A program made the position numbers and the translations under genes. The notes below the pieces were generated by a model that worked only from the letters and a program-made list of their open reading frames with translations, did no database searches and had not been told where the DNA came from. Of a DNA stretch of 26,727 nucleotides, positions 2,629-21,297 are shown in pieces (the first letter of the stretch is position 1; every line of letters begins with the position of its first letter). The DNA is taken from the IMG/VR virus record IMGVR_UViG_2675903433_000037; one strand, given 5' to 3'. Source of the stretch: a virus. Its lineage: Duplodnaviria; Heunggongvirae; Uroviricota; Caudoviricetes.

Positions 2629-2647
2629 TTTTACTTCTTCATGCCAA

Positions 2648-2674
2648 AAGGGAGCTATCTCCCTTGTTTGAATT
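2648..2674 (+). terminator. Putative gyrA terminator hairpin
   Basis: Inverted repeat aaggga-N6-tccctt followed by a T-rich tract, just after the gyrA stop. Approximate coordinates. Confidence 0.35.
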
Positions 2675-2776
2675 GAAAAGTCCAGGCTGCAAAGTCTGGG
2701 CTTTTGTCGTATTAGGGCACGGTAAAGTTTGGCTGTGCCCGTAAAAAATGGCTGGCTATACACAAGGAATGTGGCA

Positions 2777-6130
<3,354 letters not shown>

Positions 6131-6153
<23 letters not shown>

Positions 6154-6349
6154 TTCTGATCCTCTTCAAAAGGCTACTTGTTACTGGTCGATTTAAGTCA
6201 ACCTTTACCGCTGATTCGTGGAACAGATACTCTCTTCCATCCTTAACCGGAGGAGGGAATATCCTGCATTCGCGCACCCATCGACGAACTGTTTCAAGGC
6301 TTCTTGGGCGTCGCTGGCGTGCATTCCACTCCTGAAGTGTCAAGTACAT
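6131..6349 (-). CDS. xis: Excisionase, 72 aa
   Basis: Translation 'MYLTLQEWNARQRRPRSLETVRRWVRECRIFPPPVKDGREYLFHESAVKVDLNRP...' is near-identical to recalled lambda Xis and overlaps the int start. Confidence 0.9.
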
Positions 6350-6454
6350 CGCAAAGTCTCCGCAATTACACGCAAGAAAAGCCGCATTGATGCGGCAATG
6401 GTAGGTCTGGATATCTTGAGAAATGAACAGGCCTCATTGAGTGTGAGGCTGTGG

Positions 6455-6799
6455 TTAGTCCTTGCGTAGCTCGCTAATTCTTCTGTAAGTCTCTGGTGCT
6501 TTGTTTCCGTGTATCTTCATTTCAGACTTCAACAGAGCGACGAGGGAATCCCATTCGTTGAGGATGCCTTTGAATGCCGGAACGCGCTTTGCAACCTTGT
6601 CGAATGAATCTCTGATTTCTGGAATCTGCTCAACAAGTGCAACGCATCGCCGGAAGTCTGCTGCGTCATGTGGAGCGCCGAAGTGATGACCATAGATATT
6701 CTTTTTCAGTCCACATGCGATTGAGGCAAGAGTTGCGCTACTGATGCCAACATCGCCAGTCGATTGCCATTTCAAAACCTTCATAGCCAAATCTGACAT
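6455..6799 (-). CDS. Hypothetical early-left protein, 114 aa
   Basis: ATG with a ggaga RBS; co-oriented with the PL-operon genes. No family recognised. Confidence 0.45.
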   Translation of the reverse strand: MSDLAMKVLKWQSTGDVGISSATLASIACGLKKNIYGHHFGAPHDAADFRRCVALVEQIPEIRDSFDKVAKRVPAFKGILNEWDSLVALLKSEMKIHGNKAPETYRRISELRKD

Positions 6800-6917
6800 T
6801 TCTTGTCTCCATAAAACAAAACCCGCCGTAGCGAGTTCAGATAAAAGAAATCCCCGCGAGTGCGAGGATTGTTATTCATTGCCGATATTCACCTTTATCG
6901 CGAACACCTTTACCGGT

Positions 6918-7160
6918 TTATCTCCTTTGCATGGCGCGTAATTTTTTCAGATGGTTCTCCTGCTCTGTTTCAGCCAGAATTTGTCGGTATTCCTGGTGAT
7001 CGATCCGTTCAAACAGTTCATTAAAATCGTTTATTTTTACCGACTGTGTTCGCCCATCCATTCTTCTGTACAACACAGTGTTGTTTATGCAGCGAAGAAT
7101 TTTTATCGGGTAGCCGGCGCTATCGGTGTATATCTGACCACGTTGAATCAGAGCGAACAT
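6918..7160 (-). CDS. Hypothetical protein, about 80 aa
   Basis: The track ORF starts at a TTG at 7214. The first ATG (7160, MFALIQ...) has an aagga RBS and is preferred. Confidence 0.4.
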   Translation of the reverse strand: MFALIQRGQIYTDSAGYPIKILRCINNTVLYRRMDGRTQSVKINDFNELFERIDHQEYRQILAETEQENHLKKLRAMQRR

Positions 7161-7234
7161 TCCTTTATCCCCAGCGGAAAAGCGAATACAGAATAAATGC
7201 CACCGCGATTGCAACTCCTACAGCGGTGAATGCT

Positions 7235-7585
7235 TCAGGCCAATTCATCATTCACTCCCTGCGGCGGTTCTGGTAGCAGCATCCAGTACAAGGCGTTCCC
7301 TAACCACGATAAAGTGCCGTCGCTCAACTCCACGTATTCCTCTTGTACCTGTCCTGCCATATACTCACCGTGCTTTGAATAAATTAAAATCCAATCATCT
7401 TGAGCGGGCATTCGCTCACTACAGCTTATCCAACCACCCGGACTTACCGGAGAGTTGCCAGTCTTACGCATGGCAATCTCCACGATTTCAACCATATCTC
7501 CTGGCAGAATTTTACAAAGCTGGCCAAAGCGCCTCTGCTGCCTGGCATACTCGAGGATGTGCTCCAGTTTGGTTCGATTAATCAT
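7235..7585 (-). CDS. DUF551-like prophage protein, 116 aa
   Basis: 'WISCSERMP' motif typical of DUF551 proteins; start overlaps the upstream gene's stop. Confidence 0.5.
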   Translation of the reverse strand: MINRTKLEHILEYARQQRRFGQLCKILPGDMVEIVEIAMRKTGNSPVSPGGWISCSERMPAQDDWILIYSKHGEYMAGQVQEEYVELSDGTLSWLGNALYWMLLPEPPQGVNDELA

Positions 7586-8187
7586 GATTTATCTCCCTTA
7601 AGCATGGCTGCACGGCAGGCGTTCCAGCCTCTCACCTCTGCAATAGCTGCAACAGCATCAACTGTGTACATGCTAAGAGGGTTAGGCATTGGTTTTTCTT
7701 CCGGTACTACTGGCGATGGCTGTTTGGCTTCTAAATCAGCAATTCTGTCAACTACGGCATCGACAGCATCTGAAAAACTGAAACAGTTACTCCACTCAGG
7801 CCTATCCCCGGTTGTTGCGAAGTACATATCAGCTAAAGCAGACTCAGCATGGTCACGCTCGTTAATGAGTTGCTCTTCGCTTTTCTCCAGTTCAGCAATA
7901 CGTTTACTCCCATCCGAGATAACACCTTCGTAATACTCACGCTGCTCGTTGAGTTTTGATTTTGCTTCCTCAAGCTCAACACGCAGCTTCCCTACCGTTA
8001 GCGCAATTTCCTCGTTCTCCTGGTCGCGGCGTTTGATGTATTGCTGGTTTCTTTCCCGTTCATCCAGCAGTGCCAGCACAATCGATGGTGTTACCAGCTC
8101 ATGGAAAAGGTCCGCATCAAATCCCCAGTCGTCATGCATTGCCTGCTCTGCCGCTTCACGCAGTGCCTGAGAGTTAATTTCGCTCAC
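7582..8187 (-). CDS. Ead/Ea22-like protein, 201 aa
   Basis: Acidic coiled-coil protein at the lambda ea22 position. Apparent GTG start overlapping the upstream stop. Confidence 0.55.
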   Translation of the reverse strand: MSEINSQALREAAEQAMHDDWGFDADLFHELVTPSIVLALLDERERNQQYIKRRDQENEEIALTVGKLRVELEEAKSKLNEQREYYEGVISDGSKRIAELEKSEEQLINERDHAESALADMYFATTGDRPEWSNCFSFSDAVDAVVDRIADLEAKQPSPVVPEEKPMPNPLSMYTVDAVAAIAEVRGWNACRAAMLKGDKS

Positions 8188-8405
8188 TTCGAACCTCTCT
8201 GTTTACTGATAAGCTCCAGATCCTCCTGGCAACTTGCACAAGTCCGACAACCCTGAACGGCCAGACGTCTTAGTTCATCTATCGGATCGCCACACTCACA
8301 ACAATGAGTGGCAGATATAGCCTGGTGGTTCAGGCGGTGCATTTTTATTGCTGTGTTGCGCTGTAATTCTTCAATTTCTGATGCTGAATCAATGATGTCT
8401 GCCAT
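8184..8405 (-). CDS. TraR/DksA-family C4 zinc-finger protein, 73 aa
   Basis: CxxC-N17-CxxC motif 'CCECGDPIDELRRLAVQGCRTCASC' typical of phage TraR-like proteins. Confidence 0.7.
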   Translation of the reverse strand: MADIIDSASEIEELQRNTAIKMHRLNHQAISATHCCECGDPIDELRRLAVQGCRTCASCQEDLELISKQRGSK

Positions 8406-8454
8406 CTTCCATTAATCCCTGAATTGTTGGTTAATACGCTTGAGGGTGAATGCG

Positions 8455-8481
8455 AACAATAAAAAAGGAGCCTGTAGCTCC
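8455..8481 (-). terminator. Rho-independent terminator (minus strand)
   Basis: Hairpin ggagc-ctgta-gctcc flanked on the plus strand by aataaaaaa, giving a U-run on the minus-strand RNA. Confidence 0.55.
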
Positions 8482-8503
8482 CTGATGATTTTGCTTTTCA
8501 TGT

Positions 8504-8719
8504 TCATCGCTCCTTAAAGACGCCGTTTAACATGCCGATCGCCAGACTTAAATGAGTCGGTGTGAATCCCATTAGCGTTACCGTTTCGCGGTGCTTCTTC
8601 AGTACGCTACGGCAAATGTCATCGACGTTTTTATCCGGAAACTGCTGTCTGGCTTTTTTGATTTCAGAATTAGCCTGACGGGCAATGCTGCGAAGGGCGT
8701 TTTCCTGCTGAGGTGTCAT
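8504..8719 (-). CDS. Hypothetical protein orfX, 71 aa (copy A)
   Basis: [15 protein letters not shown]...GVFKER. The ATG overlaps the stop of a small upstream ORF (ATGA). The track ORF carries a 22-aa N-terminal extension that I reject. Confidence 0.5.
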   Translation of the reverse strand: MTPQQENALRSIARQANSEIKKARQQFPDKNVDDICRSVLKKHRETVTLMGFTPTHLSLAIGMLNGVFKER

Positions 8720-8799
8720 TGAACAAGTCCCATGTCGGCAAGCATAAGCACACAGAATATGAAGCCTGCTGCCAGAAAAATGCATTCTGTTGTTGTCAT
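8716..8799 (-). CDS. Small hydrophobic peptide, 27 aa (copy A)
   Basis: [31 protein letters not shown] overlaps at both ends, with orf63-like upstream and orfX downstream. Too short for the ORF track. Confidence 0.35.
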   Translation of the reverse strand: MTTTECIFLAAGFIFCVLMLADMGLVQ

Positions 8800-8987
8800 G
8801 CCGGGTCTCTCTCGTTTGCTTCTGCTTTCGCCGCCATCATTTCCAGCTTTTGTGAAAGGGATGTGGCTAACGTATGAAATTCTTCGTCTGTTTCTACTGG
8901 TATTGGCACAAACCTGACTCCAATTTGAGCGAGGCTATGTGCCATCCCGATACTCGTTCTTAATTCAACAGGAGATGCTTTGTGCAT
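8796..8987 (-). CDS. Lambda orf63-like protein, 63 aa (copy A)
   Basis: Position and sequence resemble recalled lambda orf63 between exo and ea22. Confidence 0.55.
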   Translation of the reverse strand: MHKASPVELRTSIGMAHSLAQIGVRFVPIPVETDEEFHTLATSLSQKLEMMAAKAEANERDPA

Positions 8988-9148
8988 ACAGCCCCTCGTT
9001 TATTATTTATCTCTTCAGCCAGCCGCTGTGCTTTCAGTGGATTTCGGATAACAGAAAGGCCGGGAAATACCCAGCCTCGCTTTGTAACGGAGTAGACGAA
9101 AGTGATCGTGCCTACCCGGATATTATCGTGAGGATGCTTCATTACCAT
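8960..9148 (-). CDS. Lambda orf60a-like protein, 62 aa (copy A)
   Basis: '[11 protein letters not shown]...' lies immediately downstream of exo, as recalled for lambda orf60a. Confidence 0.55.
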
Positions 9149-9522
9149 TGCTCCCCATATACAAAACCAATTTCAGCCAGTGCCTCGTCCATTTTTTCGA
9201 TGAACTCCGGCACCATCTCGTCAAAACTCGCCATGTACTTTTCATTCCGCTCAATCACGACATAATGCAGGCCTTCACGCTTCATGCGCGGGTCATAGTT
9301 GGCAAAGTACCAGGCATCTTTTCGTGTCACCCACATGCTGTACTGCACCTGGGCCATGTAAGCCGATTTTATTGCCTCGAAACCACCGAGCCGGAATTTC
9401 ATGAAATCCCGGGAGGTAAACGGGCATTTCAGTTCAAGGCCGTTGCCGTCACTGCATAAACCATCGGGAGAGCAGGCGGTGCGCATACTTTCGTCGCGAT
9501 AGATGATCGGGGATTCAGTAAA
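9142..9522 (-). pseudogene. exo: exo 3' fragment (C-terminal ~125 codons), truncated by the IS element
   Basis: Translation equals the C-terminal part of the full exo at 12642-13319. Homology ends at 9522 where IS sequence begins. Confidence 0.8.
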
Positions 9523-9586
9523 TGAGGTAGCCTGAGTTTAACGGACACTCCTTCCTGAAATAGAATGGCATCAGAAGGAGCTAATA

Positions 9587-9889
9587 ATGAGCAGAAAAAC
9601 CCAACGTTACTCTAAAGAGTTCAAAGCCGAAGCTGTCAGAACGGTTCTTGAAAATCAACTTTCGATCAGTGAAGGCGCTTCCCGATTATCTCTTCCTGAA
9701 GGCACTTTAGGACAATGGGTTACCGCCGCCAGAAAAGGGCTCGGTACTCCTGGTTCCCGCACGGTGGCTGAACTGGAATCTGAAATTCTGCAACTGCGTA
9801 AGGCGTTAAATGAAGCTCGCCTTGAGCGAGATATATTAAAAAAAGCAACAGCGTATTTTGCACAGGAGTCGCTGAAAAATACGCGTTAA
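9587..9889 (+). CDS. IS3-family transposase OrfA (HTH), 100 aa
   Basis: 'MSRKTQRYSKEFKAEAV...' with a leucine-zipper-like C-terminus; slippery aaaaaaag at about 9838-9845. Confidence 0.85.
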   Translation: MSRKTQRYSKEFKAEAVRTVLENQLSISEGASRLSLPEGTLGQWVTAARKGLGTPGSRTVAELESEILQLRKALNEARLERDILKKATAYFAQESLKNTR

Positions 9890-9924
9890 TCGAACAATGG
9901 CGACAACAATTTCCCATTGAAGCG

Positions 9925-10743
9925 ATGTGTCAGGTATTTGGTGTATCCAGGAGCGGTTATTACAACTGGGTACAGCATGAACCCTCAGACAGAAAACAAA
10001 GTGATGAGCGGCTAAAACTGGAGATTAAGGTGGCACATATCCGCACTCGCGAAACATATGGAACCCGGCGGCTCCAGACGGAGCTGGCAGAGAATGGCAT
10101 CATCGTTGGTCGTGACCGACTGGCACGTCTTCGTAAGGAGCTAAGGCTACGCTGTAAGCAGAAACGCAAGTTCAGAGCGACTACGAACTCGAACCACAAT
10201 CTGCCAGTTGCGCCAAATCTGCTGAACCAGACGTTCGCTCCTACAGCACCAAATCAGGTCTGGGTGGCGGACCTGACGTATGTTGCCACACAGGAGGGAT
10301 GGTTGTACCTCGCTGGCATCAAAGATGTTTATACGTGCGAAATTGTCGGCTACGCCATGGGAGAGCGCATGACAAAAGAGCTGACAGGTAAAGCTCTGTT
10401 TATGGCGCTCAGGAGCCAGCGCCCACCTGCCGGGCTAATCCACCACTCTGATCGAGGTTCACAGTACTGCGCATACGATTACCGGGTCATACAGGAGCAG
10501 TTTGGTCTGAAAACATCAATGTCGCGTAAAGGTAACTGTTACGACAACGCTCCGATGGAAAGCTTCTGGGGAACGCTGAAAAATGAGAGCCTGAGCCACT
10601 ATCGTTTTAATAACCGGGATGAAGCCATCTCAGTAATACGGGAATACATTGAGATTTTCTACAATCGTCAGCGTCGTCACTCTCGTCTGGGGAATATCTC
10701 CCCGGCAGCCTTCAGGGAAAAATATCATCAGATGGCTGCTTAA
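9925..10743 (+). CDS. IS3-family transposase OrfB (DDE integrase core)
   Basis: 'WVADLTYV...HHSDRGSQY...CYDNAPMESFW' DDE motifs. The native product is probably an OrfAB fusion by -1 frameshift, so the true 5' end lies upstream of this ATG. Confidence 0.85.
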   Translation: MCQVFGVSRSGYYNWVQHEPSDRKQSDERLKLEIKVAHIRTRETYGTRRLQTELAENGIIVGRDRLARLRKELRLRCKQKRKFRATTNSNHNLPVAPNLLNQTFAPTAPNQVWVADLTYVATQEGWLYLAGIKDVYTCEIVGYAMGERMTKELTGKALFMALRSQRPPAGLIHHSDRGSQYCAYDYRVIQEQFGLKTSMSRKGNCYDNAPMESFWGTLKNESLSHYRFNNRDEAISVIREYIEIFYNRQRRHSRLGNISPAAFREKYHQMAA

Positions 10744-10790
10744 AAAAAGAACAAATGGTAGTGTCCGCTATTGCCAGTACACCTCAGTTC

Positions 10791-10979
10791 TTAACTCAAC
10801 AGGAGATGCTTTGTGCATACAGCCCCTCGTTTATTATTTATCTCCTCAGCCAGCCGCTGGGCTTTCAGTGGATTTTGGATAACAGAAAGGCCGGGAAATA
10901 CCCAGCCTCGCTTTGTAACGGAGTAGAAGAAAGTGATCGTGCCTACGCGGATATTATCGTGAGGATGCTTCATCGCCAT
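10791..10979 (-). CDS. orf60a-like protein (copy B, divergent)
   Basis: Same family as 8960-9148 with several substitutions. Confidence 0.5.
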
Positions 10980-11650
10980 TGCTCCCCAAATACAAAACCA
11001 ATTTCAGCCAGTGCCTCGTCCATTTTTTCGATGAACTCCGGCACCATCTCGTCAAAACTCGCCATGTAATTTTCATCCCGCTCAACCACGACATAATGCA
11101 GGCCTTCACGCTTCATTCGTGGGTCATAGTTGGCAAAGTACCAGGCATCTTTTCGCGTCACCCACATGCTGTACTGCACCTGGGCCATGTAAGCCGACTT
11201 TATGGCCTCGAAACCACCGAGCCGGAATTTCATGAAATCCCGGGAGGTAAACGGGCATTTCAGCTCAAGGCCGTTGCCGTCACTGCATAAACCATCGGGA
11301 GAGCAGGCGGTGCGCATACTTTCGTCGCGATAGATGATCGGGGATTCAATAACATTTACGCCGGAAGTGAACTCAAACAGGGTTCTGGCGTCGTTCTCGT
11401 ACTGTTTTCCCCAGGCCAGCGCTTTAGCGTTAACTTCCGGAGCCACACCGGTGCAAACCTCAGCCAGCAGGGTGTGGAAGTAGGATATTTTCATGTCAGG
11501 CCACTTCTTTCCTGATCGGGGCTTTGCTATCACGTTGTGAACTTCTGAAGCGGTGATGACGCCGAGCCGTAATTTGTGCCATGCATCATCCCCCTGTTCG
11601 ACAGCTCTCACGTCGATCCCGGTACGCTGCAGGATAATGTCCGGTGTCAT
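10970..11650 (-). CDS. exo: Lambda-type exonuclease, 226 aa (copy B, divergent allele)
   Basis: Full-length ORF ending GEQWR like recalled lambda Exo; differs from copies A and C at several residues. Confidence 0.85.
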
Positions 11651-12219
11651 GCTGCCACCTTCTGCTCAGTGGCTTTCTGTTTCAGGAATCCAAGAGCTTT
11701 CACTGCTTCGGCCTGTGTCAGTTCTGACGATGCGCGAATGTCGCGGCGAAATATCTGGGAACAGAGCGGCAATAAGTCGTCATCCCATGTTTTATCCAGG
11801 GCGATCAGCAGAGTGTTAATCTCCTGCATGGTTTCATCGTTAACCGGAGTGATGTCGCGTTCTGGCTGACGTTCTGCAGTGTATGCAGTATTTTCGACAA
11901 TGCGCTCGGCTTCATCCTTGTCATAGATACCAGCAAATCCGAAGGCCAGACGGGCACACTGAATCATGGCTTTATGCCGTAACATCCGTTTGGGATGCGA
12001 CTGCCACGGATCCTTAAAGACGCCGTTTAACATGCCGATCGCCAGACTTAAATGAGTCGGTGTGAATCCCATTAGCGTTACCGTTTCGCGGTGCTTCTTC
12101 AGTACGCTACGGCAAATGTCATCGACGTTTTTATCCGGAAACTGCTGTCTGGCTTTTTTGATTTCAGAATTAGCCTGACGGGCAATGCTGCGAAGGGCGT
12201 TTTCCTGCTGAGGTGTCAT
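11647..12219 (-). CDS. Chimeric ORF: orfX N-terminal 69 aa fused in frame to the Bet C-terminal 119 aa
   Basis: Translation is MTPQQ...[15 protein letters not shown]...KVAA. The junction near 12005 joins bet-internal sequence to the orfX 3' end. Confidence 0.6.
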
Positions 12220-12299
12220 TGAACAAGTCCCATGTCGGCAAGCATAAGCACACAGAATATGAAGCCTGCTGCCAGAAAAATGCATTCTGTTGTTGTCAT
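12216..12299 (-). CDS. Small hydrophobic peptide, 27 aa (copy C)
   Basis: Identical to 8716-8799, offset by 3500 bp. Confidence 0.3.
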   Translation of the reverse strand: MTTTECIFLAAGFIFCVLMLADMGLVQ

Positions 12300-12487
12300 G
12301 CCGGGTCTCTCTCGTTTGCTTCTGCTTTCGCCGCCATCATTTCCAGCTTTTGTGAAAGGGATGTGGCTAACGTATGAAATTCTTCGTCTGTTTCTACTGG
12401 TATTGGCACAAACCTGACTCCAATTTGAGCGAGGCTATGTGCCATCCCGATACTCGTTCTTAATTCAACAGGAGATGCTTTGTGCAT
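12296..12487 (-). CDS. orf63-like protein (copy C)
   Basis: Identical to copy A. Confidence 0.55.
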   Translation of the reverse strand: MHKASPVELRTSIGMAHSLAQIGVRFVPIPVETDEEFHTLATSLSQKLEMMAAKAEANERDPA

Positions 12488-12648
12488 ACAGCCCCTCGTT
12501 TATTATTTATCTCTTCAGCCAGCCGCTGTGCTTTCAGTGGATTTCGGATAACAGAAAGGCCGGGAAATACCCAGCCTCGCTTTGTAACGGAGTAGACGAA
12601 AGTGATCGTGCCTACCCGGATATTATCGTGAGGATGCTTCATTACCAT
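12460..12648 (-). CDS. orf60a-like protein (copy C)
   Basis: Identical to copy A. Confidence 0.55.
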
Positions 12649-13319
12649 TGCTCCCCATATACAAAACCAATTTCAGCCAGTGCCTCGTCCATTTTTTCGA
12701 TGAACTCCGGCACCATCTCGTCAAAACTCGCCATGTACTTTTCATTCCGCTCAATCACGACATAATGCAGGCCTTCACGCTTCATGCGCGGGTCATAGTT
12801 GGCAAAGTACCAGGCATCTTTTCGTGTCACCCACATGCTGTACTGCACCTGGGCCATGTAAGCCGATTTTATGGCCTCGAAACCACCGAGCCGGAACTTC
12901 ATGAAATCCCGGGAGGTAAACGGGCATTTCAGCTCAAGGCCGTTGCCGTCACTGCATAAACCATCGGGAGAGCAGGCGGTGCGCATACTTTCGTCGCGAT
13001 AGATGATCGGGGATTCAGTAACATTCACGCCGGAAGTGAACTCAAAGAGGGTTCTGGCGTCGTTCTCGTACTGTTTTCCCCAGGCCAGAGCCTTAGCGTT
13101 AACTTCCGGAGCCACACCGGTGCAAACCTCAGCCAGCAGGGTGTGGAAGTAGGACATTTTCATGTCAGGCCACTTCTTTCCTGATCGGGGTTTTGCTATT
13201 ACGTTGTGAATTTCTGAAGCTGTGATGACGCCGAGCCGTAATTTGTGCCACGCATCATCTCCCTGTTCGACAGCTCTCACGTCGATCCCAGTACGCTGCA
13301 GGATAATGTCCGGTGTCAT
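12642..13319 (-). CDS. exo: Lambda exonuclease (Red-alpha), 225 aa
   Basis: Near-identical to recalled lambda Exo; ends GEQW-stop, one codon shorter than copy B. Overlaps the bet stop. Confidence 0.9.
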
Positions 13320-14101
13320 GCTGCCACCTTCTGTTCAGTGGCTTTTTGTTTCAGGAATCCAAGAGCTTTTACTGCTTCGGCCTGTGTCAGTTCTGACGAT
13401 GCACGAATGTCGCGGCGAAATATCTGGGAACAGAGCGGCAATAAGTCGTCATCCCATGTTTTATCCAGGGCGATCAGCAGAGTGTTAATTTCCTGCATGG
13501 TTTCATCGTTAACCGGAGTGATGTCGCGTTCCGGCTGACGTTCTGCAGTGTATGCGGTATTTTCGACAATGCGCTCGGCTTCATCCTTGTCATAGATACC
13601 AGCAAATCCGAAGGCGAGACGGGCACACTGAATCATGGCTTTATGACGTAACATCCGTTTGGGATGCGACTGCCACGGCCCCGTGATTTCTCTGCCTTCG
13701 CGGGTTTTGAATGGTTCGCGGCGGCATTCATCCATCCACTCGGTAACGCAGATCGGATGATTACGGTCCTTGCGGTAAATCCGGCATGTGCAGGATTCAT
13801 TGTCCTGCTCAAAGTCCATGCCATCAAACTGCTGGTTTTCGTTGATGATGCGGGACCAGCCATCAACGCCCACCACCGGAACGATGCCGTTCTGCTTATC
13901 AGGGAAGGCGTAAATTTCTTTCGTCCACGGATTAAGGCCGTACTGGTTGGCGACGATCAGCAATGCGATGAACTGCGCATCGCTGGCATCACCTTTAAAT
14001 GCCGTCTGGCGAAGAGTGGTGATCAGTTCCTGTGGGTCGACAGAATCCATGCCGACACGTTCAGCCAGCTTCCCAGCCAGCGTTGCGAGTGCTGTACTCA
14101 T
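13316..14101 (-). CDS. bet: Bet (Red-beta) single-strand annealing protein, 261 aa
   Basis: '[75 protein letters not shown]...' matches recalled lambda Bet. Confidence 0.95.
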
Positions 14102-14106
14102 CCGTT

Positions 14107-14403
14107 TTATACCTCTGAATCAATATCAACCTGGTGGTGAGCAATGGTTTCAACCATGTACCGGATGTGTTCTGCCATGCGCTCCTGAAACTCAACATCG
14201 TCATCAAACGCACGGGTAATGGCTTTTTTGCTGGCCCCGTGGCGTTGCAAATGATCGATGCATAGCGATTCAAACAGGTGCTGGGGCAGGCCTTTTTCCA
14301 TGTCGTCTGCCAGTTCTGCCTCTTTCTCTTCACGGGCGATCTGCTGGTAGTGACGCGCCCAGCTCTGAGCCTCAAGACGATCCTGAATGTAATAAGCGTT
14401 CAT
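14107..14403 (-). CDS. gam: Gam (RecBCD inhibitor), short 98-aa form
   Basis: '[60 protein letters not shown]...' matches recalled lambda Gam. Confidence 0.9.
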
Positions 14404-14478
14404 GGCTGAACTCCTGAAAATGGCTGTGAAAAAATCGCCCGCGGAATGCCAGGCTGATTCGGAAAACAGGAAAGGGGA

Positions 14479-14769
14479 TTAGTGATTCAGACCGTTGCCG
14501 CGTCCGTCGAGAAAAACTTCCACGAGCAAGTCACGGGTATAAGTGCGCTCAATGCCGCGATGCAGATAAAGTCGTCCGCGTAAATTAGCTGATGCAGTCC
14601 AGGTACCATCTTTGCGTTTGACCAGCATTCCTGGCATGACCGCACCGCGATTAACGGTCTGCGTTCCGTAATGTTGATGAACCATAAAAACTCCTGCCCG
14701 TAAGCTGGGCTGCTGAACATATAAAGACTTCTGCGCGTATTCAGGCGGTGGATGGCCGCCGGTTGTCAT
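14479..14769 (-). CDS. Hypothetical protein at the kil position, 96 aa
   Basis: First gene of the leftward operon after the putative OL/PL; ATG with a gagg RBS. Identity to Kil not verifiable from memory. Confidence 0.4.
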   Translation of the reverse strand: MTTGGHPPPEYAQKSLYVQQPSLRAGVFMVHQHYGTQTVNRGAVMPGMLVKRKDGTWTASANLRGRLYLHRGIERTYTRDLLVEVFLDGRGNGLNH

Positions 14770-14939
14770 AACTAAGCCGCCTCGTTGAAGCGACTAAGGT
14801 ATGAAATGTTGAGTTGATTTCAGCTGGTCACACCGACGTTCACGCGTCCGTTTCATCCCTCGCACTCCCCGAAGCCTGCTGAAATTCAAGCTGCGGATCT
14901 AAGCGGTCATCGCAACGGTGAATCAGGTGATTGCCGTAT

Positions 14940-15060
14940 CGTTGTGTTGTTGCGATGAACTCATTTAAAACTATAGTTGTTTTATCGTCAACAACAAAAG
15001 TTGTTTTGTTGGTTGTTTTAGATATAACTGGTTGTATTTAAGATGGATTTATTTTGTGAC
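14940..15060 (-). promoter_or_regulatory. Putative OL/PL operator-promoter region
   Basis: AT-rich tract with repeated gttgtt / aacaac half-sites, for example 'aaaactatagttgtttt', related to the inverted repeat in the cI-cro intergenic region. Confidence 0.4.
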
Positions 15061-15120
15061 TTGCATCGCATAGCGATAACTGAAGCGAGGTCGTGGTGGT
15101 TTTTTTGAACGGTGTATGAT

Positions 15121-15151
15121 GAGGGGAGGGCAAAAGAAAACCCGGCACGGT
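15121..15151 (-). terminator. Rho-independent terminator ending the cI operon (tIMM-like)
   Basis: Hairpin cccggc-acggtg-gccggg flanked by aaaagaaaa on the plus strand, giving a U-run on the minus-strand RNA. Confidence 0.65.
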
Positions 15152-15235
15152 GGCCGGGTTTAGATGATTGGTTAAGAGCGAGGGTAATGGGGAATGAAAA
15201 ATCGCTTTACCTAATGCAAGGGTGCGAGCATTTTC

Positions 15236-15679
15236 TTAAGCACTAAAGAAAAAGTACATTGATAGCTTATAAAGTCCTGTTCCTGCAGCGATGATTGCTG
15301 GAACACCAAGCAATACCGCAAGCTTTGCGTCTGAAATCTTTCTATCGACAGCATCACTTGATGGCTTGTTTGTTAAGGATTCTTTTATAGAGTCCAGACG
15401 TGCAAGAATAGTTATCATATTTTTGTCGATAGCTTTAACGTCTGTTTTAAGTTCATCAACGTCTCGTTTGATATGAGCAACATCGGACTCCAGTTTTGCA
15501 ACTTTTTCAGGCATGTTATCACTCCCAGACCCACTGCTACCACTTGATTGTAGCATGTCCCATCTTTTTCCAGATATACCTGCTAGCTGGGAAGACGCAC
15601 TGGAGTGCAAACAAAATGATTCTGCCGCCTTTGCAATTTTATCATTTAGGTTTGGAGCTTCGTAATAATCGTGTTTCAT
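15236..15679 (-). CDS. Coiled-coil protein with C-terminal membrane anchor, 147 aa (rex-position gene 2)
   Basis: Ser/Gly-rich linker, heptad-like 'VAKLESDVAHIKRDVDELKTDVKAIDKNMITILARLDSIKESL', hydrophobic tail 'LAVLLGVPAIIAAGTGLYKL'. Starts 12 nt after the upstream stop. Confidence 0.6.
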   Translation of the reverse strand: MKHDYYEAPNLNDKIAKAAESFCLHSSASSQLAGISGKRWDMLQSSGSSGSGSDNMPEKVAKLESDVAHIKRDVDELKTDVKAIDKNMITILARLDSIKESLTNKPSSDAVDRKISDAKLAVLLGVPAIIAAGTGLYKLSMYFFFSA

Positions 15680-15691
15680 AATTAATTACGA

Positions 15692-15955
15692 TTAGTTTGT
15701 TTTAGCTTTGTCATGCTGGTCGCGAATGAAGTCAGCCAATTTAAGCATCAATTCTTCGGGCATTCTAATGGTTGCAATGTTGTACTTTATGTTCTCAACA
15801 TCGTCACTTTCATCAACAGGCCATTCAGTTACATTATGAAAAAAAGAAATTGAACCTAGGCGCTGAGAGCCGTCACCAAACGAAGAGTAGCCAAACGCGT
15901 CGGCGTATGCATCGACACAGTTATTTGATTTTTTAACAAGTGTTTTATTACTCAT
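15692..15955 (-). CDS. Hypothetical 87-aa protein with C-terminal RHH-like motif (rex-position gene 1)
   Basis: ATG with a gggaaagg RBS directly downstream of cI. C-terminal 'IATIRMPEELMLKLADFIRDQ' resembles a ribbon-helix-helix strand-helix. Confidence 0.55.
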   Translation of the reverse strand: MSNKTLVKKSNNCVDAYADAFGYSSFGDGSQRLGSISFFHNVTEWPVDESDDVENIKYNIATIRMPEELMLKLADFIRDQHDKAKTN

Positions 15956-16036
15956 TTTTGCCTTTCCCGTAATGTTATTTTTTATAAGGTATTTTCTTCA
16001 GCGTATTACCCAAAAGCCTCATCAACACGCGGCTGA

Positions 16037-16726
16037 TTATCCGTGTTTTCTGTACGTCTGCGGCATGCTCCCAATAACCTTACCGAATATGAATACCCGG
16101 TTCATCTCGTCTTTCTCGATAGGGTCCCACGGTGAGTAGCTCTTGTTATCAGAGATAACCAGCAGTTTATCCTTCATCATTTGCAGGCGCTTTACATGGG
16201 CGGTGTCGTCGTACAGAAATGCATAGATACCATCACCGTCGAAAGATTTAACCGTGATATCAACGAACAGCAGATCACCTGGTTCGATCGTTCCTGACAT
16301 GCTGTCACCACGCACGTTAATGATGCGGATATTTTCTGCCTTCCTACCATCGAACATGTGACGAGCATCGTCAAACGAGTACTCAACCGAGCGTAGAACT
16401 TCTACAAACTCACGGTTGATGACTCCCGGCCCAGCACTGACTTCTATATCAAGAACGTCAATCTTGAAGTATTTGGAATGGCTGACAGTTGATTGTATTG
16501 GTTGCACTGTACTGTCTGACATATTTCCAACGCCAGAAGATAACCATTCTGCGCGCACACCCAAAGCGTTCGCGATCTCCACGATTTTAGTTGTTTGATT
16601 AGCTTTCCCTGTTTCGATTTTCTGAATAGCAGCCTGGCTAACCCCGACCAAATCCCCAAGCGCCTTTTGTGTAAGGCCTCGCGCTAATCTGGCTTCTTTA
16701 AGTCTTTCTGAGAGTGTTGTTTTCAT
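16037..16726 (-). CDS. cI-type prophage repressor (N-terminal HTH plus S24 peptidase domain), 229 aa
   Basis: HTH 'LTQKALGDLVGVSQAAIQKIETG' and S24 signature 'VRGDSMSGTIEPGDLLFV' with a downstream Lys in 'HVKRLQ'. Start chosen at MKTTL; the track's upstream ATG at 16792 lies inside the operator. Confidence 0.85.
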   Translation of the reverse strand: MKTTLSERLKEARLARGLTQKALGDLVGVSQAAIQKIETGKANQTTKIVEIANALGVRAEWLSSGVGNMSDSTVQPIQSTVSHSKYFKIDVLDIEVSAGPGVINREFVEVLRSVEYSFDDARHMFDGRKAENIRIINVRGDSMSGTIEPGDLLFVDITVKSFDGDGIYAFLYDDTAHVKRLQMMKDKLLVISDNKSYSPWDPIEKDEMNRVFIFGKVIGSMPQTYRKHG

Positions 16727-16830
16727 AGTCCAAATGTACAACCAAGGTTTTATTCCATCAAACGAAAATGGTTGTTGACTAAAAACAACCATAGTTTTAA
16801 TCTTGATTCAAATTAACCACGGAGGTTGTT
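16727..16830. promoter_or_regulatory. Divergent PRM/PR-type promoter-operator region
   Basis: 104-bp spacer between the divergent cI-like and cro-like genes. Inverted repeat atggttgtt-N9-aacaaccat at about 16768-16795; the cro-like gene has a ggagg RBS. Confidence 0.6.
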
Positions 16831-17061
16831 ATGAACCCAGCTATCAAAACAGCGATCAATATCGTTGGTTCACAAAAGAAACTGGGCGCTGCCTGCGAAG
16901 TTTCACAGCAGGCCGTCTATAAGTGGCTTCACAACAAAGCAAAGGTATCCCCTGAACATGTCGGCAGCATTGTTACGGCTACTGGTGGAGTAGTGAAGGC
17001 ATACCAGATTCGCCCGGATCTTCCGAAGTTGTTTCCACACACCGAAAAGAACGCAGCTTAA
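16831..17061 (+). CDS. Cro/YdaS-like HTH regulator, 76 aa
   Basis: Small HTH protein ('AACEVSQQAVYKWL') transcribed divergently from the repressor. Confidence 0.75.
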   Translation: MNPAIKTAINIVGSQKKLGAACEVSQQAVYKWLHNKAKVSPEHVGSIVTATGGVVKAYQIRPDLPKLFPHTEKNAA

Positions 17062-17130
17062 ATTTCCATTTCACGCTCTTTAACAATAAGCAATCAACTT
17101 AACAGTCAATTCAAACTAAAGGAGTCAATT

Positions 17131-17670
17131 ATGCAACCACTTCCATACCAACAGACTAGCGGATTTAGCCCGACTGCGGTGATAAATCGTTCTCAAACAA
17201 AACAGGTGCCAGGCCACGAAAAAATCCGTGATGCCGTCCGCGCCTGGTCGGCTGTAGATAATCAGGATGTCGTTGCCACACTCATTGTGAATGAGTATCG
17301 GGAGCAGGGCGGCGGCACCATCGATTTCCCTGATGATGTCAGCCGTACACGCCAGAAGCTGTTCCGCTTCCTCGATAACAAATTCGATTCTGAAAAATAC
17401 CGAAATAACGTGCGTGAACTGACCCCGGCAATTCTGGCGGTACTACCGCTGGAATATCGCGGTTACCTGGTTGAGCAGGATAGCTTCATGGCTAGGTTGG
17501 CTGAAATGGAAAAGGAACTCAGTGAGGCAAAACAGGCTGTCATTCTCAACGCACCACGCCACCAGAAACTGAAGGAAATTAGTGAAGGTATTGTGTCGAT
17601 GTTTCGTGTGGACCCAGAGCTGGCTGGTCCATTGATGGCGATGGTTACTACCATGCTGGGGGCGATATGA
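17131..17670 (+). CDS. YdaT-like protein at the cII position, 179 aa
   Basis: 'EYREQGGGT' and 'LTPAILAVLPLEYRGYL' resemble recalled Rac-prophage YdaT; aaggag RBS. Confidence 0.55.
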   Translation: MQPLPYQQTSGFSPTAVINRSQTKQVPGHEKIRDAVRAWSAVDNQDVVATLIVNEYREQGGGTIDFPDDVSRTRQKLFRFLDNKFDSEKYRNNVRELTPAILAVLPLEYRGYLVEQDSFMARLAEMEKELSEAKQAVILNAPRHQKLKEISEGIVSMFRVDPELAGPLMAMVTTMLGAI

Positions 17671-17756
17671 CAGGTTCAGAAATGGCGAAAGCCGGTCTGC
17701 TGGAACAGAACCGACTTTCAGGTGCAAATCGTAACACACTCATTGCGGGAGGAATT

Positions 17757-18686
17757 ATGGCAAACACTGCTGAGATATTCAATTTTCCAGTGCCGGATGC
17801 GGCACAAAAGGAGCCGCGCGTGGCAGATCTCGATGATGGTTATACGCGCATTGCAAATGAGTTGCTGGAAGCTGTAATGCTGGCCGGATTAACACAGCAC
17901 CAGCTTCTGGTCTTCCTGGCTGTCATGCGCAAAACATATGGCTTTAATAAAAAACTGGACTGGGTGAGCAACGAGCAACTTTCCGAGTTGACCGGGATAT
18001 TGCCGCACAAGTGTTCTGCTGCAAAAAGTGTTCTGGTAAAGCGTGGGATTTTTATTCAGAGCGGGCGGAATATCGGCATTAATAATGTGGTCAGTGAATG
18101 GTCAACATTACCCGAATCAGGTAAGAAAAATAAAGTTTACCTGAAAGAGGTAAATTTACCTGAATCAGGTAAGAAAAGTTTACCCAAATCAGGTAAAGGC
18201 ACTTACCCGAATCAGGTAAACACAAAAGACAAACTAACAAAAGACAATATAAAACCTTATTCGTCCGAGAATTCTGGCGAATCCTCTGACCTGCCAGAAA
18301 ACGACCTTCCTGTGGTGAAAGCGGATGCTGCGATTCAGAGCGGCAGCAAGTGGGGGACAGCAGAAGACCTGACCGCCGCAGAGTGGATGTTTGACATGGT
18401 GAAGACCATCGCGCCATCAGCCAGAAAACCGAATTTTGCAGGGTGGGCTAACGATATCCGTCTGATGCGTGAACGTGATGGACGTAACCACCGCGACATG
18501 TGTGTACTGTTCCGCTGGGCCTGCCAGGACAACTTCTGGTCCGGTAACGTGCTGAGTCCGGCCAAACTCCGCGACAAGTGGACCCAGCTCGAAATCAACC
18601 GGAACAAGCAACAGGCTGGCGTGACAGTCGGCAAACCAAAACTCGACCTGACAAACACAGACTGGATTTACGGGGTGGATCTATGA
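17757..18686 (+). CDS. O: Replication initiator O-like protein, 309 aa
   Basis: N-terminus resembles lambda O ('ADLDDGY...RKTYG'); ori iterons lie inside the gene; stop overlaps the P start. The track ORF starts 90 nt upstream; ATG 17757 has a gggagga RBS. Confidence 0.85.
   Translation: MANTAEIFNFPVPDAAQKEPRVADLDDGYTRIANELLEAVMLAGLTQHQLLVFLAVMRKTYGFNKKLDWVSNEQLSELTGILPHKCSAAKSVLVKRGIFIQSGRNIGINNVVSEWSTLPESGKKNKVYLKEVNLPESGKKSLPKSGKGTYPNQVNTKDKLTKDNIKPYSSENSGESSDLPENDLPVVKADAAIQSGSKWGTAEDLTAAEWMFDMVKTIAPSARKPNFAGWANDIRLMRERDGRNHRDMCVLFRWACQDNFWSGNVLSPAKLRDKWTQLEINRNKQQAGVTVGKPKLDLTNTDWIYGVDL
18105..18270. repeat. Origin of replication: four to five palindromic ~18-bp iterons plus an AT-rich tract
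   Basis: Repeated tTACCcgAATCAGGTAAg units at about 18109, 18136 (degenerate), 18155, 18179 and 18201, followed by an A-rich stretch. Confidence 0.7.
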
Positions 18687-19384
18687 AAAACATCGCCGCA
18701 CAGATGATTAACTTTGACCGTGAGCAGATGCGTCGGATCGCCAACAACATGCCGGAACAGTACGACGAAAAGCCGCAGGTACAGCAGGTAGCGCAGATAA
18801 TCAACGGTGTATTCAGCCAGTTACTGGCAACTTTCCCGGCGAGCCTGGCTAATCGTGACCAGAACGAACTGAACGAAATCCGCCGCCAGTGGGTTCTGGC
18901 TTTCCGGGAAAACGGGATCACCACGATGGAACAGGTGAGCGCCGGAATGCGTGTTGCCCGTCGGCAGAATAGACCATTTCTGCCATCACCCGGGCAGTTT
19001 GTTGCATGGTGCCGGGAAGAAGCATCCGTTAACGCCGGGCTGCCAAACGTCAGCGAGCTGGTTGATATGGTTTACGAGTATTGCCGGAAGCGTGGCCTGT
19101 ATCCGGATGCAGAGTCTTATCCGTGGAAATCGAACGCGCATTACTGGTTGGTTACCAACCTGTACCAGAACATGCGGGCCAATGCGCTGACTGACGCGGA
19201 ATTACGGCGCAAGGCTGCCGATGAACTGACCTGTATGACAGCGCGAATTAACCGTGGTGAGACGATACCTGAACCAGTAAAACAACTTCCTGTTATGGGC
19301 GGTAGACCTCTAAATCGTGCACAGGCTCTGGCGAAGATCGCAGAAATCAAAGCTAAGTTTGGGCTGAAAGGAGCAAGTGTATGA
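18683..19384 (+). CDS. P: Replication protein P (DnaB helicase loader), 233 aa
   Basis: 'MKNIAAQMINFDREQMRRIANNMPEQYDEKPQVQQVAQIINGVFSQLLATFPASLANRDQNE...' is near-identical to recalled lambda P. Confidence 0.95.
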   Translation: MKNIAAQMINFDREQMRRIANNMPEQYDEKPQVQQVAQIINGVFSQLLATFPASLANRDQNELNEIRRQWVLAFRENGITTMEQVSAGMRVARRQNRPFLPSPGQFVAWCREEASVNAGLPNVSELVDMVYEYCRKRGLYPDAESYPWKSNAHYWLVTNLYQNMRANALTDAELRRKAADELTCMTARINRGETIPEPVKQLPVMGGRPLNRAQALAKIAEIKAKFGLKGASV

Positions 19385-19413
19385 CGGGCAAAGAAAGATT
19401 CTTCGTTACTTGA
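19381..19413 (+). pseudogene. ren: ren remnant: 10-codon ORF MTGKERFFVT-stop
   Basis: ATG overlaps the P stop (ATGA) as in lambda P/ren, and the first four codons match recalled lambda Ren (MTGKE). Confidence 0.45.
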
Positions 19414-19565
19414 AGAAATACAGTGTTTATTGTTCTTTTGAGATGTTGCGAAAACAGGAATTACCACGGTAAACATTTTGTAGCTGACCCATGCATTGAT
19501 GAAATATTGTGGGTATTTAATAGAGCATAATTATCAAGTTGCGTAAGATGTGGAGTAATGGTATG

Positions 19566-19590
19566 GGCGGTGTTAGCACCGCCTTTAATT
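19566..19590 (+). terminator. Hairpin terminator downstream of P
   Basis: ggcggtg-ttag-caccgcc followed by tttaatt. Confidence 0.5.
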
Positions 19591-19936
19591 AAAGCTCAGA
19601 AAGCTGTGATAATATTTTTTCTGGAGTGGTTTCGTTGGAAATGCTAAATAATACAGCACCTTTGACTGATTCATCTCTCATTTCAATTTCACATGAATTA
19701 TGGTTGTATGAGATTGCATAATTTTTTAATGTTCTTTCGCTTTGCCACCACACCATATTTGCAAGACTTCCGTTATACGTTCTTATCTCGATTGATCCGG
19801 GCAGGGCTTTCCAGATAACACCTCCTAGCAATGTAAGAGCGGCTGCACCAACATTTTTTGCATGATGGTTAGAACGTTCCATTACCCCTTCAGCATAACG
19901 ATGAAGAATCTCTATGTCAGTCGCTTTGATAGTCAT
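19589..19936 (-). CDS. Hypothetical protein, 115 aa, on the opposite strand to flanking genes
   Basis: ATG-initiated ORF opposing the rightward early operon, with AT-rich upstream DNA. No family recognised. Confidence 0.5.
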   Translation of the reverse strand: MTIKATDIEILHRYAEGVMERSNHHAKNVGAAALTLLGGVIWKALPGSIEIRTYNGSLANMVWWQSERTLKNYAISYNHNSCEIEMRDESVKGAVLFSISNETTPEKILSQLSEL

Positions 19937-20164
19937 GTTATTTCCATGTAATTGCTGTGTGAAACGTAGTGTTAGTTAGGTGTTAGCAGAATATAGCATC
20001 AAAGTCGAAACCGGTAGAAAAAATATTGGTGATTATTTCGCTGCATTTGGAACTGGAACAACAATGATTATTAGCATGATTGCTTTTTCCAGTCATAAGA
20101 ATGAGTCGTGTTAATTTTTTCTATTCAATAGGAAATTATCATGTCATCAGAATATGAACAACTA

Positions 20165-20257
20165 CGGTGACTTCTGCGCTAAACGGGGACGTTTATGCGC
20201 ACATACAATCCAAACTCTCTTCTCCCTCCACAGATGCAGAAATACACCTGCGATTTT
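20165..20257 (+). repeat. Direct repeat R1 (93 bp) carrying an RBS and the 5' end of a ylcH-like small ORF
   Basis: About 94% identical to 22487-22579. Contains ggggacgtttATGcgcacatacaat..., with the ATG at 20195 opening a 46-codon ORF. Confidence 0.8.
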
Positions 20258-20414
20258 TTGCATTCGGTGTTTTTGGCAGCCAAGAACAGGGAGTCTCTGT
20301 TTGTCTGGCGGCTAAAGGTGATATGGAAATCGTGATGTCTTAGCCTAAAGTAGTTGCAACAGTTGGAGCGATTATGGTGGTAGTAGTGATCATCGCGCCC
20401 CCCATATGCAAGGG

Positions 20415-20444
20415 TTGACGACATTATTTATCCGGCGCTATATT
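20415..20444 (+). promoter_or_regulatory. Sigma70-like promoter
   Basis: -35 TTGACG, 18-bp spacer, -10 TATATT. Confidence 0.45.
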
Positions 20445-20504
20445 CTGTGCGTTGCCGCAAAATCGGCACACGGGATTGGCGTCCCGGACATCAAAACGAC
20501 GCAT

Positions 20505-20527
20505 AACCGCGTTCGCGGTTTTTTTAT
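20505..20527 (+). terminator. Intrinsic terminator in the leader upstream of the Bro-N gene
   Basis: aaccgcg-tt-cgcggtt hairpin followed by ttttttt, about 60 nt downstream of the predicted promoter. Confidence 0.55.
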
Positions 20528-20688
20528 GCGCAGTGCACGTCTACACAAAAATTATGGTGGGCTGTGTGAGGGCTTCTTCGGAAGCGCCGGATTTCGTTTT
20601 GACCGGTTACGCCAACCTTGCACAGTCCACCACCAGTCGATTGGCGTCGTCGGTGGTGATAGCTCAAATTCAAAACGAGATTATCGCT

Positions 20689-21297
20689 ATGGTCACTCAG
20701 CTCGCATTCCGCGATGTAAAATTCACTCCTATAAATCACAACAACCAGATCTGGTTTACCAGCAAAGAATTGGCGGCAGCATTAAAATATGCCAGCACCA
20801 AAGCAGTAACCGACATCTACAACAAAAATATTGATGAGTTTACTGACGGAATGTCTCAGGTCGTCGAATCAACGACCTCAGGAAATTATCGTAAGAAGAC
20901 TCGCATTTTCTCCCTCCGTGGCGCCCATCTGATCGCCATGTTCGCCCGCACTCCTGTGGCCAAAGAATTCCGCCGCTGGGTGCTGGATATTCTCGATCGA
21001 GAAATTCAACAATCCCCAATCACAAAACAATTCACTGATAACGAACTTTGCACACTTGCTTGGTTATGGCGGGCAAGTGACACAATGTTAACCGCTTGCC
21101 AAAACGTCACTCCGCTTCTTCAGGTAGCAGAACACCGCGAAGCCGGTCGCTTCACTTCAATCGAACAAGAATATCCCCGGATACTCAATAAGGCACAGGC
21201 AATCCTTGCCAGAGAAACGGCACATGTAAAATTCCGGCCGTGGCAGGATGATAAGTGGAGTCGAGTATTGACGCATTTACGTTCTGAACGGCTGTAA
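20689..21297 (+). CDS. Bro-N domain antirepressor-like protein, 202 aa
   Basis: N-terminus 'FTPINHNNQIWFTSKELAAAL...RIFSLRGAHLIAMFARTPVAKEFRRWVLDIL' fits the Bro-N pattern. The track's 281-aa ORF would span the promoter and terminator. Confidence 0.65.
   Translation: MVTQLAFRDVKFTPINHNNQIWFTSKELAAALKYASTKAVTDIYNKNIDEFTDGMSQVVESTTSGNYRKKTRIFSLRGAHLIAMFARTPVAKEFRRWVLDILDREIQQSPITKQFTDNELCTLAWLWRASDTMLTACQNVTPLLQVAEHREAGRFTSIEQEYPRILNKAQAILARETAHVKFRPWQDDKWSRVLTHLRSERL

Follow-up and report, generated by a model that had tools for sequence, protein, structure and literature searches.

The locus analysed here raises the question of whether a lambda Red recombination module is truly present in three partial copies around an insertion sequence, or whether such an arrangement was created during genome assembly. 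In the window, i.e., the whole 26,727-nucleotide stretch of DNA that was analysed, comparison of the sequence with itself by BLAST and a repeat search agreed with the preliminary description in finding three partial copies, of which A and C are near-identical, with 8511-9521 and 12011-13021 sharing 99.70% identity over 1011 bp, with 3 mismatches and no gaps. Additionally, 10787-12009 matched 12456-13678 (96.7% over 1223 bp, no gaps), and 8956-9521 matched 10787-11352 with about 96.5% identity. These repeats far exceed chance expectation. As detailed below, the apparent triplication of the exo and bet genes around IS600 is, with high probability, not a real feature.

The genes involved are those of a lambda Red module, in which a YqaJ-family exonuclease, a RecT-family annealase and Gam are adjacent. 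The called genes carry the Pfam families YqaJ (PF09588), RecT (PF03837), Gam (PF06064), DUF1317 and DUF1382, and RefSeq names the exo, bet and gam genes in four reference loci (L001-L004). The open reading frames agree with the earlier observation of two exo alleles (ending in GEQW and GEQWR), one intact bet and one bet fragment, while the divergence of about 5% at the protein level previously attributed to copy B has to be lowered, the exo products being about 3% different (218/225 residues identical). The IS3-family element noted between A and B proved to be a complete IS600, as judged from its length, its imperfect terminal inverted repeats of the TGAGGT...GGACAC type and the orfA/orfB genes of a DDE transposase. 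The called 385-aa product carries the Pfam domains HTH_Tnp_1 and rve, and the RefSeq transposase of IS600, to which the element in the window is 100% identical, is annotated with a programmed frameshift. The flanks of this element are non-collinear, with pieces A and B sharing a 566-bp overlap. The features are listed in Table 1; in the text, x denotes the equivalent position in copy C.

Table 1. Coordinates of the pieces, joins, insertion sequence and genes in the window.
Feature	Position	Strand	Remarks
Piece A	8511..9521	-	ZapA-like orfX, orf63, orf60a, exo 3' fragment; 99.7% to C
Piece B	10787..12009	-	orf60a, full exo, bet 3' fragment; divergent prophage allele
Piece C	12011..14403	-	full single-copy module, orfX through gam
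Scaffold join	9522..9522	.	N in CYGC01000016.1, A in window
Scaffold join	12010..12010	.	N in CYGC01000016.1, A in window
Switch interval, yfaA-prophage to argU-type alleles	14076..14181	.	SNP table
IS600, complete, IS3 family, 1264 bp	9523..10786	+	100% identical to annotated copies in L001-L004
IS600 orfA	9587-9889	+	
IS600 orfB	9925-10743	+	
orfX, ZapA-like (piece A)	8504-8785	-	
orf63 / DUF1382 (piece A)	8796-8987	-	
orf60a / DUF1317 (piece A)	8960-9148	-	
exo 3' fragment (piece A)	9142-9521	-	
orf60a (piece B)	10791-10979	-	
exo, full, 226 aa (piece B)	10970-11650	-	ends GEQWR
bet 3' fragment (piece B)	11647-12009	-	Bet residues 142-261
ZapA-like orfX (piece C)	12011-12285	-	without last 2 codons and stop
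orf63 (piece C)	12296-12487	-	
orf60a (piece C)	12460-12648	-	
exo, 225 aa (piece C)	12642-13319	-	ends GEQW
bet, intact, 261 aa (piece C)	13316-14101	-	
gam (piece C)	14107-14403	-	

The source contig of the window is CYGC01000016.1, from the E. coli draft genome GCA_001283185.1 (locus L008). Comparison of the two sequences revealed that 12,679 of 12,681 positions match, and that the only two differences are single N characters in the record, at window positions 9522 and 12010, each of which had become an A in the window. The first N falls exactly on the junction between A and IS600 and the second exactly on the junction between B and C, which lies at 12009/12010/12011 and not at 12005/12006 as initially proposed. 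The A displayed by the window is carried by no allele at either position, the alleles there being C or T. The A/IS600 and B/C adjacencies, two of the three junctions, are thus scaffold joins without sequenced DNA behind them. A single N alone does not prove an adjacency false, and the scaffolder presumably had read-pair links. The third junction, between IS600 and B (10786/10787), is the only one without an N, has a B-specific SNP 8 nt away and is probably real. A literature search for assembly accessions, GCA_001283185.1 among them, found no paper mentioning them.

The replacement of the N at 12010 by an A also accounts for an apparent fusion gene, since it places the bet fragment in frame with the ZapA-like ORF in an uninterrupted 212-aa ORF (11647-12285). 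In the source record, a 190-aa gene was called at this site. Exact look-up of the 190-aa fusion product of the window returned no match, which is the outcome expected from the X caused by the N at 12010, and exact look-up of the 212-aa product likewise returned none. Moreover, no ZapA-like::Bet fusion was present among 4,583 homologues retrieved from 5.8 billion protein clusters. The B/C junction also reads GGATCC, and a BamHI/Sau3AI cloning junction was considered and rejected, because the record has an N in place of the central A, and GATC is present at this site in neither parent.

The allele identity of each piece was determined by comparison with related prophages. Piece A continues without a break from the left arm of a prophage at the yfaA site, and positions 1-9521 of the window, piece A included, match the prophage at this site in the complete genome 95_0274 with 99.94% identity. 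Piece C is 100% identical, from 12011 to 13678, to the single-copy locus of that same genome (L004), and when A and C are overlapped, they collapse onto this single-copy locus. Piece A carries the C allele up to x=12867 and then the alleles of an argU-type prophage (L003) at 12873, 12897 and 12933, which means that all three A/C differences are argU-type alleles. Such a switch is the change of phase expected when k-mer extension runs through paralogues. Since short reads are unable to resolve two 1011-bp copies with three clustered differences, the assembly offers no positive evidence for two copies. To the right of the allele switch at 14076-14181, the argU-type arm runs on to about 26723 and is 99.4-99.9% identical to argU-site prophages.

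Piece B represents a third prophage allele, differing at one position out of 1223 bp from single-copy prophages of three E. coli drafts (L006, L009 and L013), its best match in a complete genome being only 99.1% identical. Its differences from C start 8 nt and 32 nt from its ends. Two further candidates were discarded. A tandem duplication into which IS600 was later inserted conflicts with the 566-bp overlap between A and B and with the divergence of B to within 8 nt and 32 nt of its ends. If, instead, another prophage had converted a duplicated copy, the conversion tract would need to have its ends within 8 nt and 32 nt of heterologous positions.

The identity of B also bears on the idea that the arrangement is partly real, with IS600 truly inserted in this prophage (at exo x=13021/13022 or at x=12456) and with the duplicated flank and the placement of B being artefacts of gap-filling through paralogues. 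The IS600/B junction, sequenced without an N and with its nearby B-specific SNP, is consistent with this idea, as are the tie made by the scaffolder between IS600 and this region and the occurrence of IS600 within the same module in related complete genomes. However, links made via a multi-copy IS are unreliable, and the B allele, at 96.7% identity, is distinct from those of A and C on either side, which argues that IS600 was inserted in a B-type copy rather than in the type-1 module into which the yfaA left arm runs. An insertion of IS600 in this very prophage therefore seems hardly probable.

The position of the piece ends points in the same direction as the Ns. All four ends that adjoin an N are places where repeats diverge: the IS600 + B piece begins at the first base of IS600, A ends one base short of x=13022, B ends one base short of x=13679, and C begins one base past x=12010, the last three positions being C or T among the alleles. 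Based on a density of 4.5% polymorphic sites among the three allele types, the chance that three piece ends are all flush with polymorphic sites is about 9e-5. Comparable breaks are found in other assemblies, with left-arm contigs stopping at x=12986/12987 (L015-L017) and right-arm contigs of short-read assemblies beginning at 13894 (L023) and 14198 (L024). Majority-rule extension would likewise be halted at exo x=13021/13022 if IS600 were truly inserted there.

In contrast, a real partial triplication, with the scaffold order correct, would have been made in vivo by two events. In the first, homologous recombination between IS600 copies located at different sites in two prophages (exo x=13021 in a type-1 phage; x=12456, downstream of orf60a and inside orf63, in a B-type phage) would yield A-IS600-B with the 566-bp overlap. 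In the second, an illegitimate, microhomology-mediated join would connect bet (x=13678) with the ZapA-like gene at its 3' end (x=12011). The flanks of IS600 lack a 3-bp target-site duplication (left AA(N), right GTT), which fits inter-IS recombination; nevertheless, the left flank is a scaffold join, which explains the missing duplication. The limited microhomology at the B/C junction (CACGGCCCC in bet and CATCGCTCC in the zapA-like gene) is also compatible with in vivo events, as is the activity of IS600 in the Red module of related complete genomes, and chimeric Bet fusions of other kinds are indeed contained in E. coli databases. Against this, the record gives an N for each of the two decisive junction bases, and there is no reason for illegitimate junctions to coincide with paralogue-polymorphic sites. 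IS600 would have had to insert twice independently, with two rare recombination events thereafter, the single-copy reference still matches C at 100%, and the structure would be beyond short-read resolution even if present. One-ended IS600 transposition carrying B was also considered and is no simpler, because a prior 13021/12011 junction is still needed.

The arrangement was, furthermore, found in no other genome searched. In 5,426 complete E. coli genomes, not one of the three junctions was present, and the B/C junction was absent from one genome per species (185,579 species) and from viral contigs. Neither the B/C nor the IS/B junction was found in genome, viral and metagenome contig collections, and more than one Red module per locus or prophage was not seen in any complete genome or phage record examined. 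Thus, the two marks of a genuine duplication, a sequenced base at the B/C junction and an independent occurrence in related genomes, are both missing, and the in vivo origin of the triplication appears very unlikely. The real, recombinogenic inter-prophage mosaic given as one option in the preliminary description is not supported, in view of the single-N joins at two of three junctions, the piece ends at branch points and the junctions absent elsewhere, and the assembly artefact that it named as the alternative gains support from the same Ns and piece ends.

Therefore, the three-copy structure is very probably a scaffolding and gap-extension artefact in a short-read draft of an E. coli strain with several near-identical lambdoid prophages. 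According to this explanation, three separately assembled pieces would have been chained via read-pair links: the left arm, as far as exo, of the prophage at the yfaA site; IS600 together with an orf60a-exo-bet' stretch from a different prophage; and the same yfaA-type module continuing into an argU-type right arm. The first and third pieces would represent one locus read twice, and the second would have been wrongly interposed between them. Greedy extension from both sides may then have overlapped by 1011 bp without ever merging, leaving a single N at each join between pieces. It has been described that GapFiller adds single nucleotides to the edges of a gap, with a majority rule of 0.7, and that gaps stay open in repeats with equal-ratio alternatives (PMC3446322). 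A widely used pipeline combining Velvet, SSPACE and 120 GapFiller iterations has been called greedy and prone to false joins by its authors (PMC5320598). A runaway extension of 1-2 kb by a gap-filler is plausible under this explanation, in which we infer the assembler, scaffolder and gap-filler used as well as the true layout. Most likely, this layout comprises one Red module at the locus and an ordinary IS600 insertion in another, B-type prophage, where the element would lie just downstream of orf60a, inside orf63. The different alleles do come from different prophages, and it was most likely the assembler, not the cell, that brought them together.

The main value of this locus is one of caution, since single-N joins in a short-read draft had become ordinary bases. 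Once its N is turned into a base, a false join looks like a clean novel junction, and even like an in-frame fusion gene, and the same artefact will be met in any search of draft genomes for prophage modules that are mosaic or duplicated. It can be recognised by piece ends that lie right against paralogue SNPs or IS termini, by a duplicated stretch that reduces to the single copy of a reference, and by junctions confined to one assembly. The only biology that probably remains is that IS600 inserted, in the ordinary manner, into a lambdoid prophage of a many-prophage strain. Were the triplication true, an in-frame fusion of the ZapA-like protein with the Bet C-terminal domain would stand beside two exo alleles.

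Compared with known systems, the module resembles the lambda Red module of lambdoid and Stx prophages (933W, O26) in its gene order (gam, bet, exo, orf60a, orf63, ZapA-like) and is 98-99% identical to those of Stx phages and of O26/O103 prophages. Unlike the complete genomes and phage records examined, which have one copy per prophage, this scaffold alone displays three partial copies. The IS600 element, in turn, is like other insertions in the early region of prophages, being a 1264-bp copy identical to IS600, of which real insertions are present in the same module of the complete genomes EH2252 (x about 12066, in the ZapA-like gene) and CFSAN027346 (x about 12487, in the orf60a/orf63 overlap). 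It departs from ordinary IS600 insertions in that its flanks are non-collinear, no 3-bp duplication is present and the left flank is reached via an N. With regard to assembly, the 1011-bp duplicate is larger than one gap estimate with a 300-500 bp library, so that many extension rounds must be assumed for an assembly method that we infer. In other respects, the locus is like the false joins of Velvet/SSPACE/GapFiller-type pipelines, with which it shares single-N joins, ends at branch points and at an IS terminus, a duplicate on both sides of an interposed repeat contig, and switches of allele phase.

The preliminary description had reported three partial copies of the Red module with near-identical direct repeats, and this arrangement was recovered in the self-BLAST of the window. 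Copy A (8511-9521) aligned with 12011-13021 of copy C at 99.70% identity over 1011 bp, with three mismatches and no gaps, in agreement with the repeat search, while copy B matched C at 96.7% (10783-12009 against 12453-13678) and A at 96.5% (10783-11352 against 8953-9521). B proper begins at 10787, the four preceding bases being the IS end, which matches the flank by chance, and from there it aligns to 12456-13678 without gaps. The IS3-family element between A and B is also present and corresponds to IS600, with 9523-10786 being 100% identical to RefSeq copies annotated 'IS3-like element IS600 family transposase'. Likewise, the two exo alleles (225 aa and 226 aa) were found, sharing 218/225 residues, and the bet fragment of B comprises residues 142-261, in frame with the ZapA-like ORF of C.

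Features of the Red module locus and its insertion sequence
Feature	Coordinates	Strand	Details
IS600	9523-10786		1264 bp; imperfect terminal inverted repeats; orfA/orfB
ZapA-like small ORF (previously orfX)		minus	
orf63		minus	DUF1382
orf60a		minus	DUF1317
exo		minus	YqaJ family; alleles of 225 aa and 226 aa
bet		minus	RecT family
gam		minus	

An exact look-up of the B-allele Exo protein in public assemblies led to one contig sharing the gene order of the window, CYGC01000016.1 (121 kb) of the E. coli draft GCA_001283185.1. Over 12,681 bases, compared with window 4970-17650, the two sequences are identical except at two positions, in both of which the record has a single N and the window, which itself has zero N, has an A. 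The first (9522) separates the last base of A from the base that opens IS600, and the second (12010) separates the last base of B from the first of C; an A at either site occurs in no prophage allele compared, the equivalent sites being C or T. Thus, of the three junctions behind the three tandem copies, two are scaffold joins, and the adjacency of A with IS600 and of B with C is a software inference that was not sequenced through. In the record, a 190-aa gene is called across the join of B and C, and an exact protein look-up with the corresponding window product returned no match, which an X derived from the N in the recorded product would explain. Further Ns in 1-4969 and 17651-26727, the parts of the window outside the record comparison, would be equally invisible.

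The positions at which the pieces end were compared among three allele types, namely type 1 (L004, the prophage at the yfaA site in complete genome 95_0274), the argU-site type (L003) and the B type (L006), using the coordinates of C (x) as reference. The last base of A is x=13021, that of B is x=13678 and the first base of C is x=12011, and the adjoining positions (x=13022, x=13679 and x=12010, respectively) are all C/T polymorphic among the three types; the fourth end coincides exactly with base 1 of IS600, which is a multi-copy element. With polymorphic sites at a density of 4.5% in the region, three flush ends would arise by chance with P ~9e-5, a test that is not circular since the ends are set by the N positions and the polymorphisms were taken from other genomes. 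Such ends are expected of contigs or of their extensions and have no reason in real illegitimate recombination. GapFiller lengthens gap edges by single nucleotides, requires a 0.7 majority and does not close gaps in repeats whose alternatives are equally supported (PMC3446322), and the authors of a widely used Velvet, SSPACE and GapFiller pipeline (120 GapFiller iterations) call these tools greedy and capable of false joins (PMC5320598). A literature search on the assembly accession found no paper mentioning it. It is very unlikely that the partial triplication is present in the isolate, as it would require four steps, comprising an IS600 insertion in each of two prophages, arising independently, their recombination with each other, and an illegitimate joining of bet to the zapA-like gene, and would leave unexplained both the two Ns and the ends flush with polymorphic sites.

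The allele identity of the pieces was also established. C shows 100% identity over 12011-13678 with the single-copy locus of 95_0274. Window 1-9521, which extends from gyrA and yfaA past int and xis as far as the last base of A, is 99.94% identical to that genome. A carries the type-1 allele at all informative sites up to x=12867 and the argU-type allele at 12873, 12897 and 12933, which are its sole differences from C; at these three sites, a contig of a related strain (L015) agrees with C. B represents a third allele and differs at one base in 1223 bp from the single-copy prophages of other drafts (L006, L009 and L013). These identities indicate that the scaffold holds traces of three co-resident Red modules. 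In fact, related complete genomes carry several such modules, as in strain B1_2, with both yfaA-type and argU-type prophages, and the B query found up to seven matching places per genome. When A is overlapped with C, the usual single-copy module is obtained. Most economically, pieces 1 and 3, ending in A and starting with C, would be one locus approached from both sides, and piece 2 (IS600 and B) would have been wrongly placed between them, so that their extensions never merged. That IS600 truly occupies this locus, the flanking duplication alone being artefactual, is very unlikely, considering that the allele of B is foreign to the two flanks.

Probes of 200 bp over each of the three junctions were not matched over their full length in any of 5,426 complete E. 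coli genomes. Additionally, the junction of B and C was found neither in viral contigs nor in a collection of 185,579 species with one genome each, that of IS600 and B in none of the species, viral or metagenome collections, and a ZapA-like part joined to Bet was absent among the matches listed in a fusion-protein search (4,583 homologues). Complete genomes and phage records always showed one module per prophage. Other short-read assemblies, from related strains, break at the same places, with left-arm contigs (L015-L017) stopping in exo at x=12986/12987 and right-arm contigs (L023, L024) beginning within bet or gam (13894 and 14198). Of the two readings offered by the preliminary description, which was accurate as a description, the evidence supports the assembly artefact rather than the real mosaic, and the three-copy structure is very probably a scaffolding and gap-extension artefact rather than a real feature.

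Recurrent chimeric Bet proteins of other kinds were observed in E. coli databases (P0060, P0067-P0076, and also P0004 and P0066, among the homologues of the fusion-protein search). A 307-aa RecT and phage-integrase chimera (PF03837+PF00589) occurs on 77 contigs, including complete chromosomes, and further chimeras are Gam+RecT and DUF551+RecT; these may be true rearrangements or products of annotation or assembly.

The insertion of IS600 in a B-type prophage, 4 nt downstream of the orf60a stop and inside the orf63 5' end, is probably real, since the 10786/10787 junction is free of N and is 8 nt from a B-specific SNP. No target-site duplication flanks IS600 in the window, and the scaffold join at its left flank accounts for this. 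IS600 insertions in this module are ordinary: complete genome EH2252 carries one in the same prophage, inside its ZapA-like gene (L001 3071-4334), and CFSAN027346 another, in opposite orientation, where orf60a and orf63 overlap in the argU prophage (L020 3555-4821). These independent and apparently genuine insertions in the same small stretch suggest a recurrent IS600 target region.

Beyond the repeats, the allele switches within 14076-14181 (bet start/gam), from L004-type up to 14075 to L003-type from 14182, beyond which the right arm (KilR, S24 repressor, YdaS/YdaT, O, P ... porin, lysis genes) is 99.4-99.9% identical to the argU-type prophage. Coverage of window 1-25000 stays below 80% in every complete E. 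coli genome. Considering this, the allele switch and the contig breaks at 13894 and 14198, the pairing of left and right arms may itself be chimeric, a second such join and not a natural mosaic. The right arm contains a 115-bp direct repeat in its nin-region part (20143-20257 and 22465-22579, 89.6% identity by self-BLAST). Accessory genes were placed at 19589-19936 (-) and 21597-22393 (+) by collinearity with L018, from which a VCH_CASS14-family ORF of 115 aa, a weak HEPN-domain ORF (138 aa) with an ORF of 133 aa next after it, and a Bro-N/P22_AR_C antirepressor-like gene were deduced; these genes are possible moron or defence cargo.

The module is a standard lambda-type Red module, with genes 98-99% identical to those of Stx phages such as 933W, and the element is a standard IS600. 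The 'triplication' fits a known way in which scaffolded, gap-filled short-read drafts of multi-prophage E. coli go wrong.
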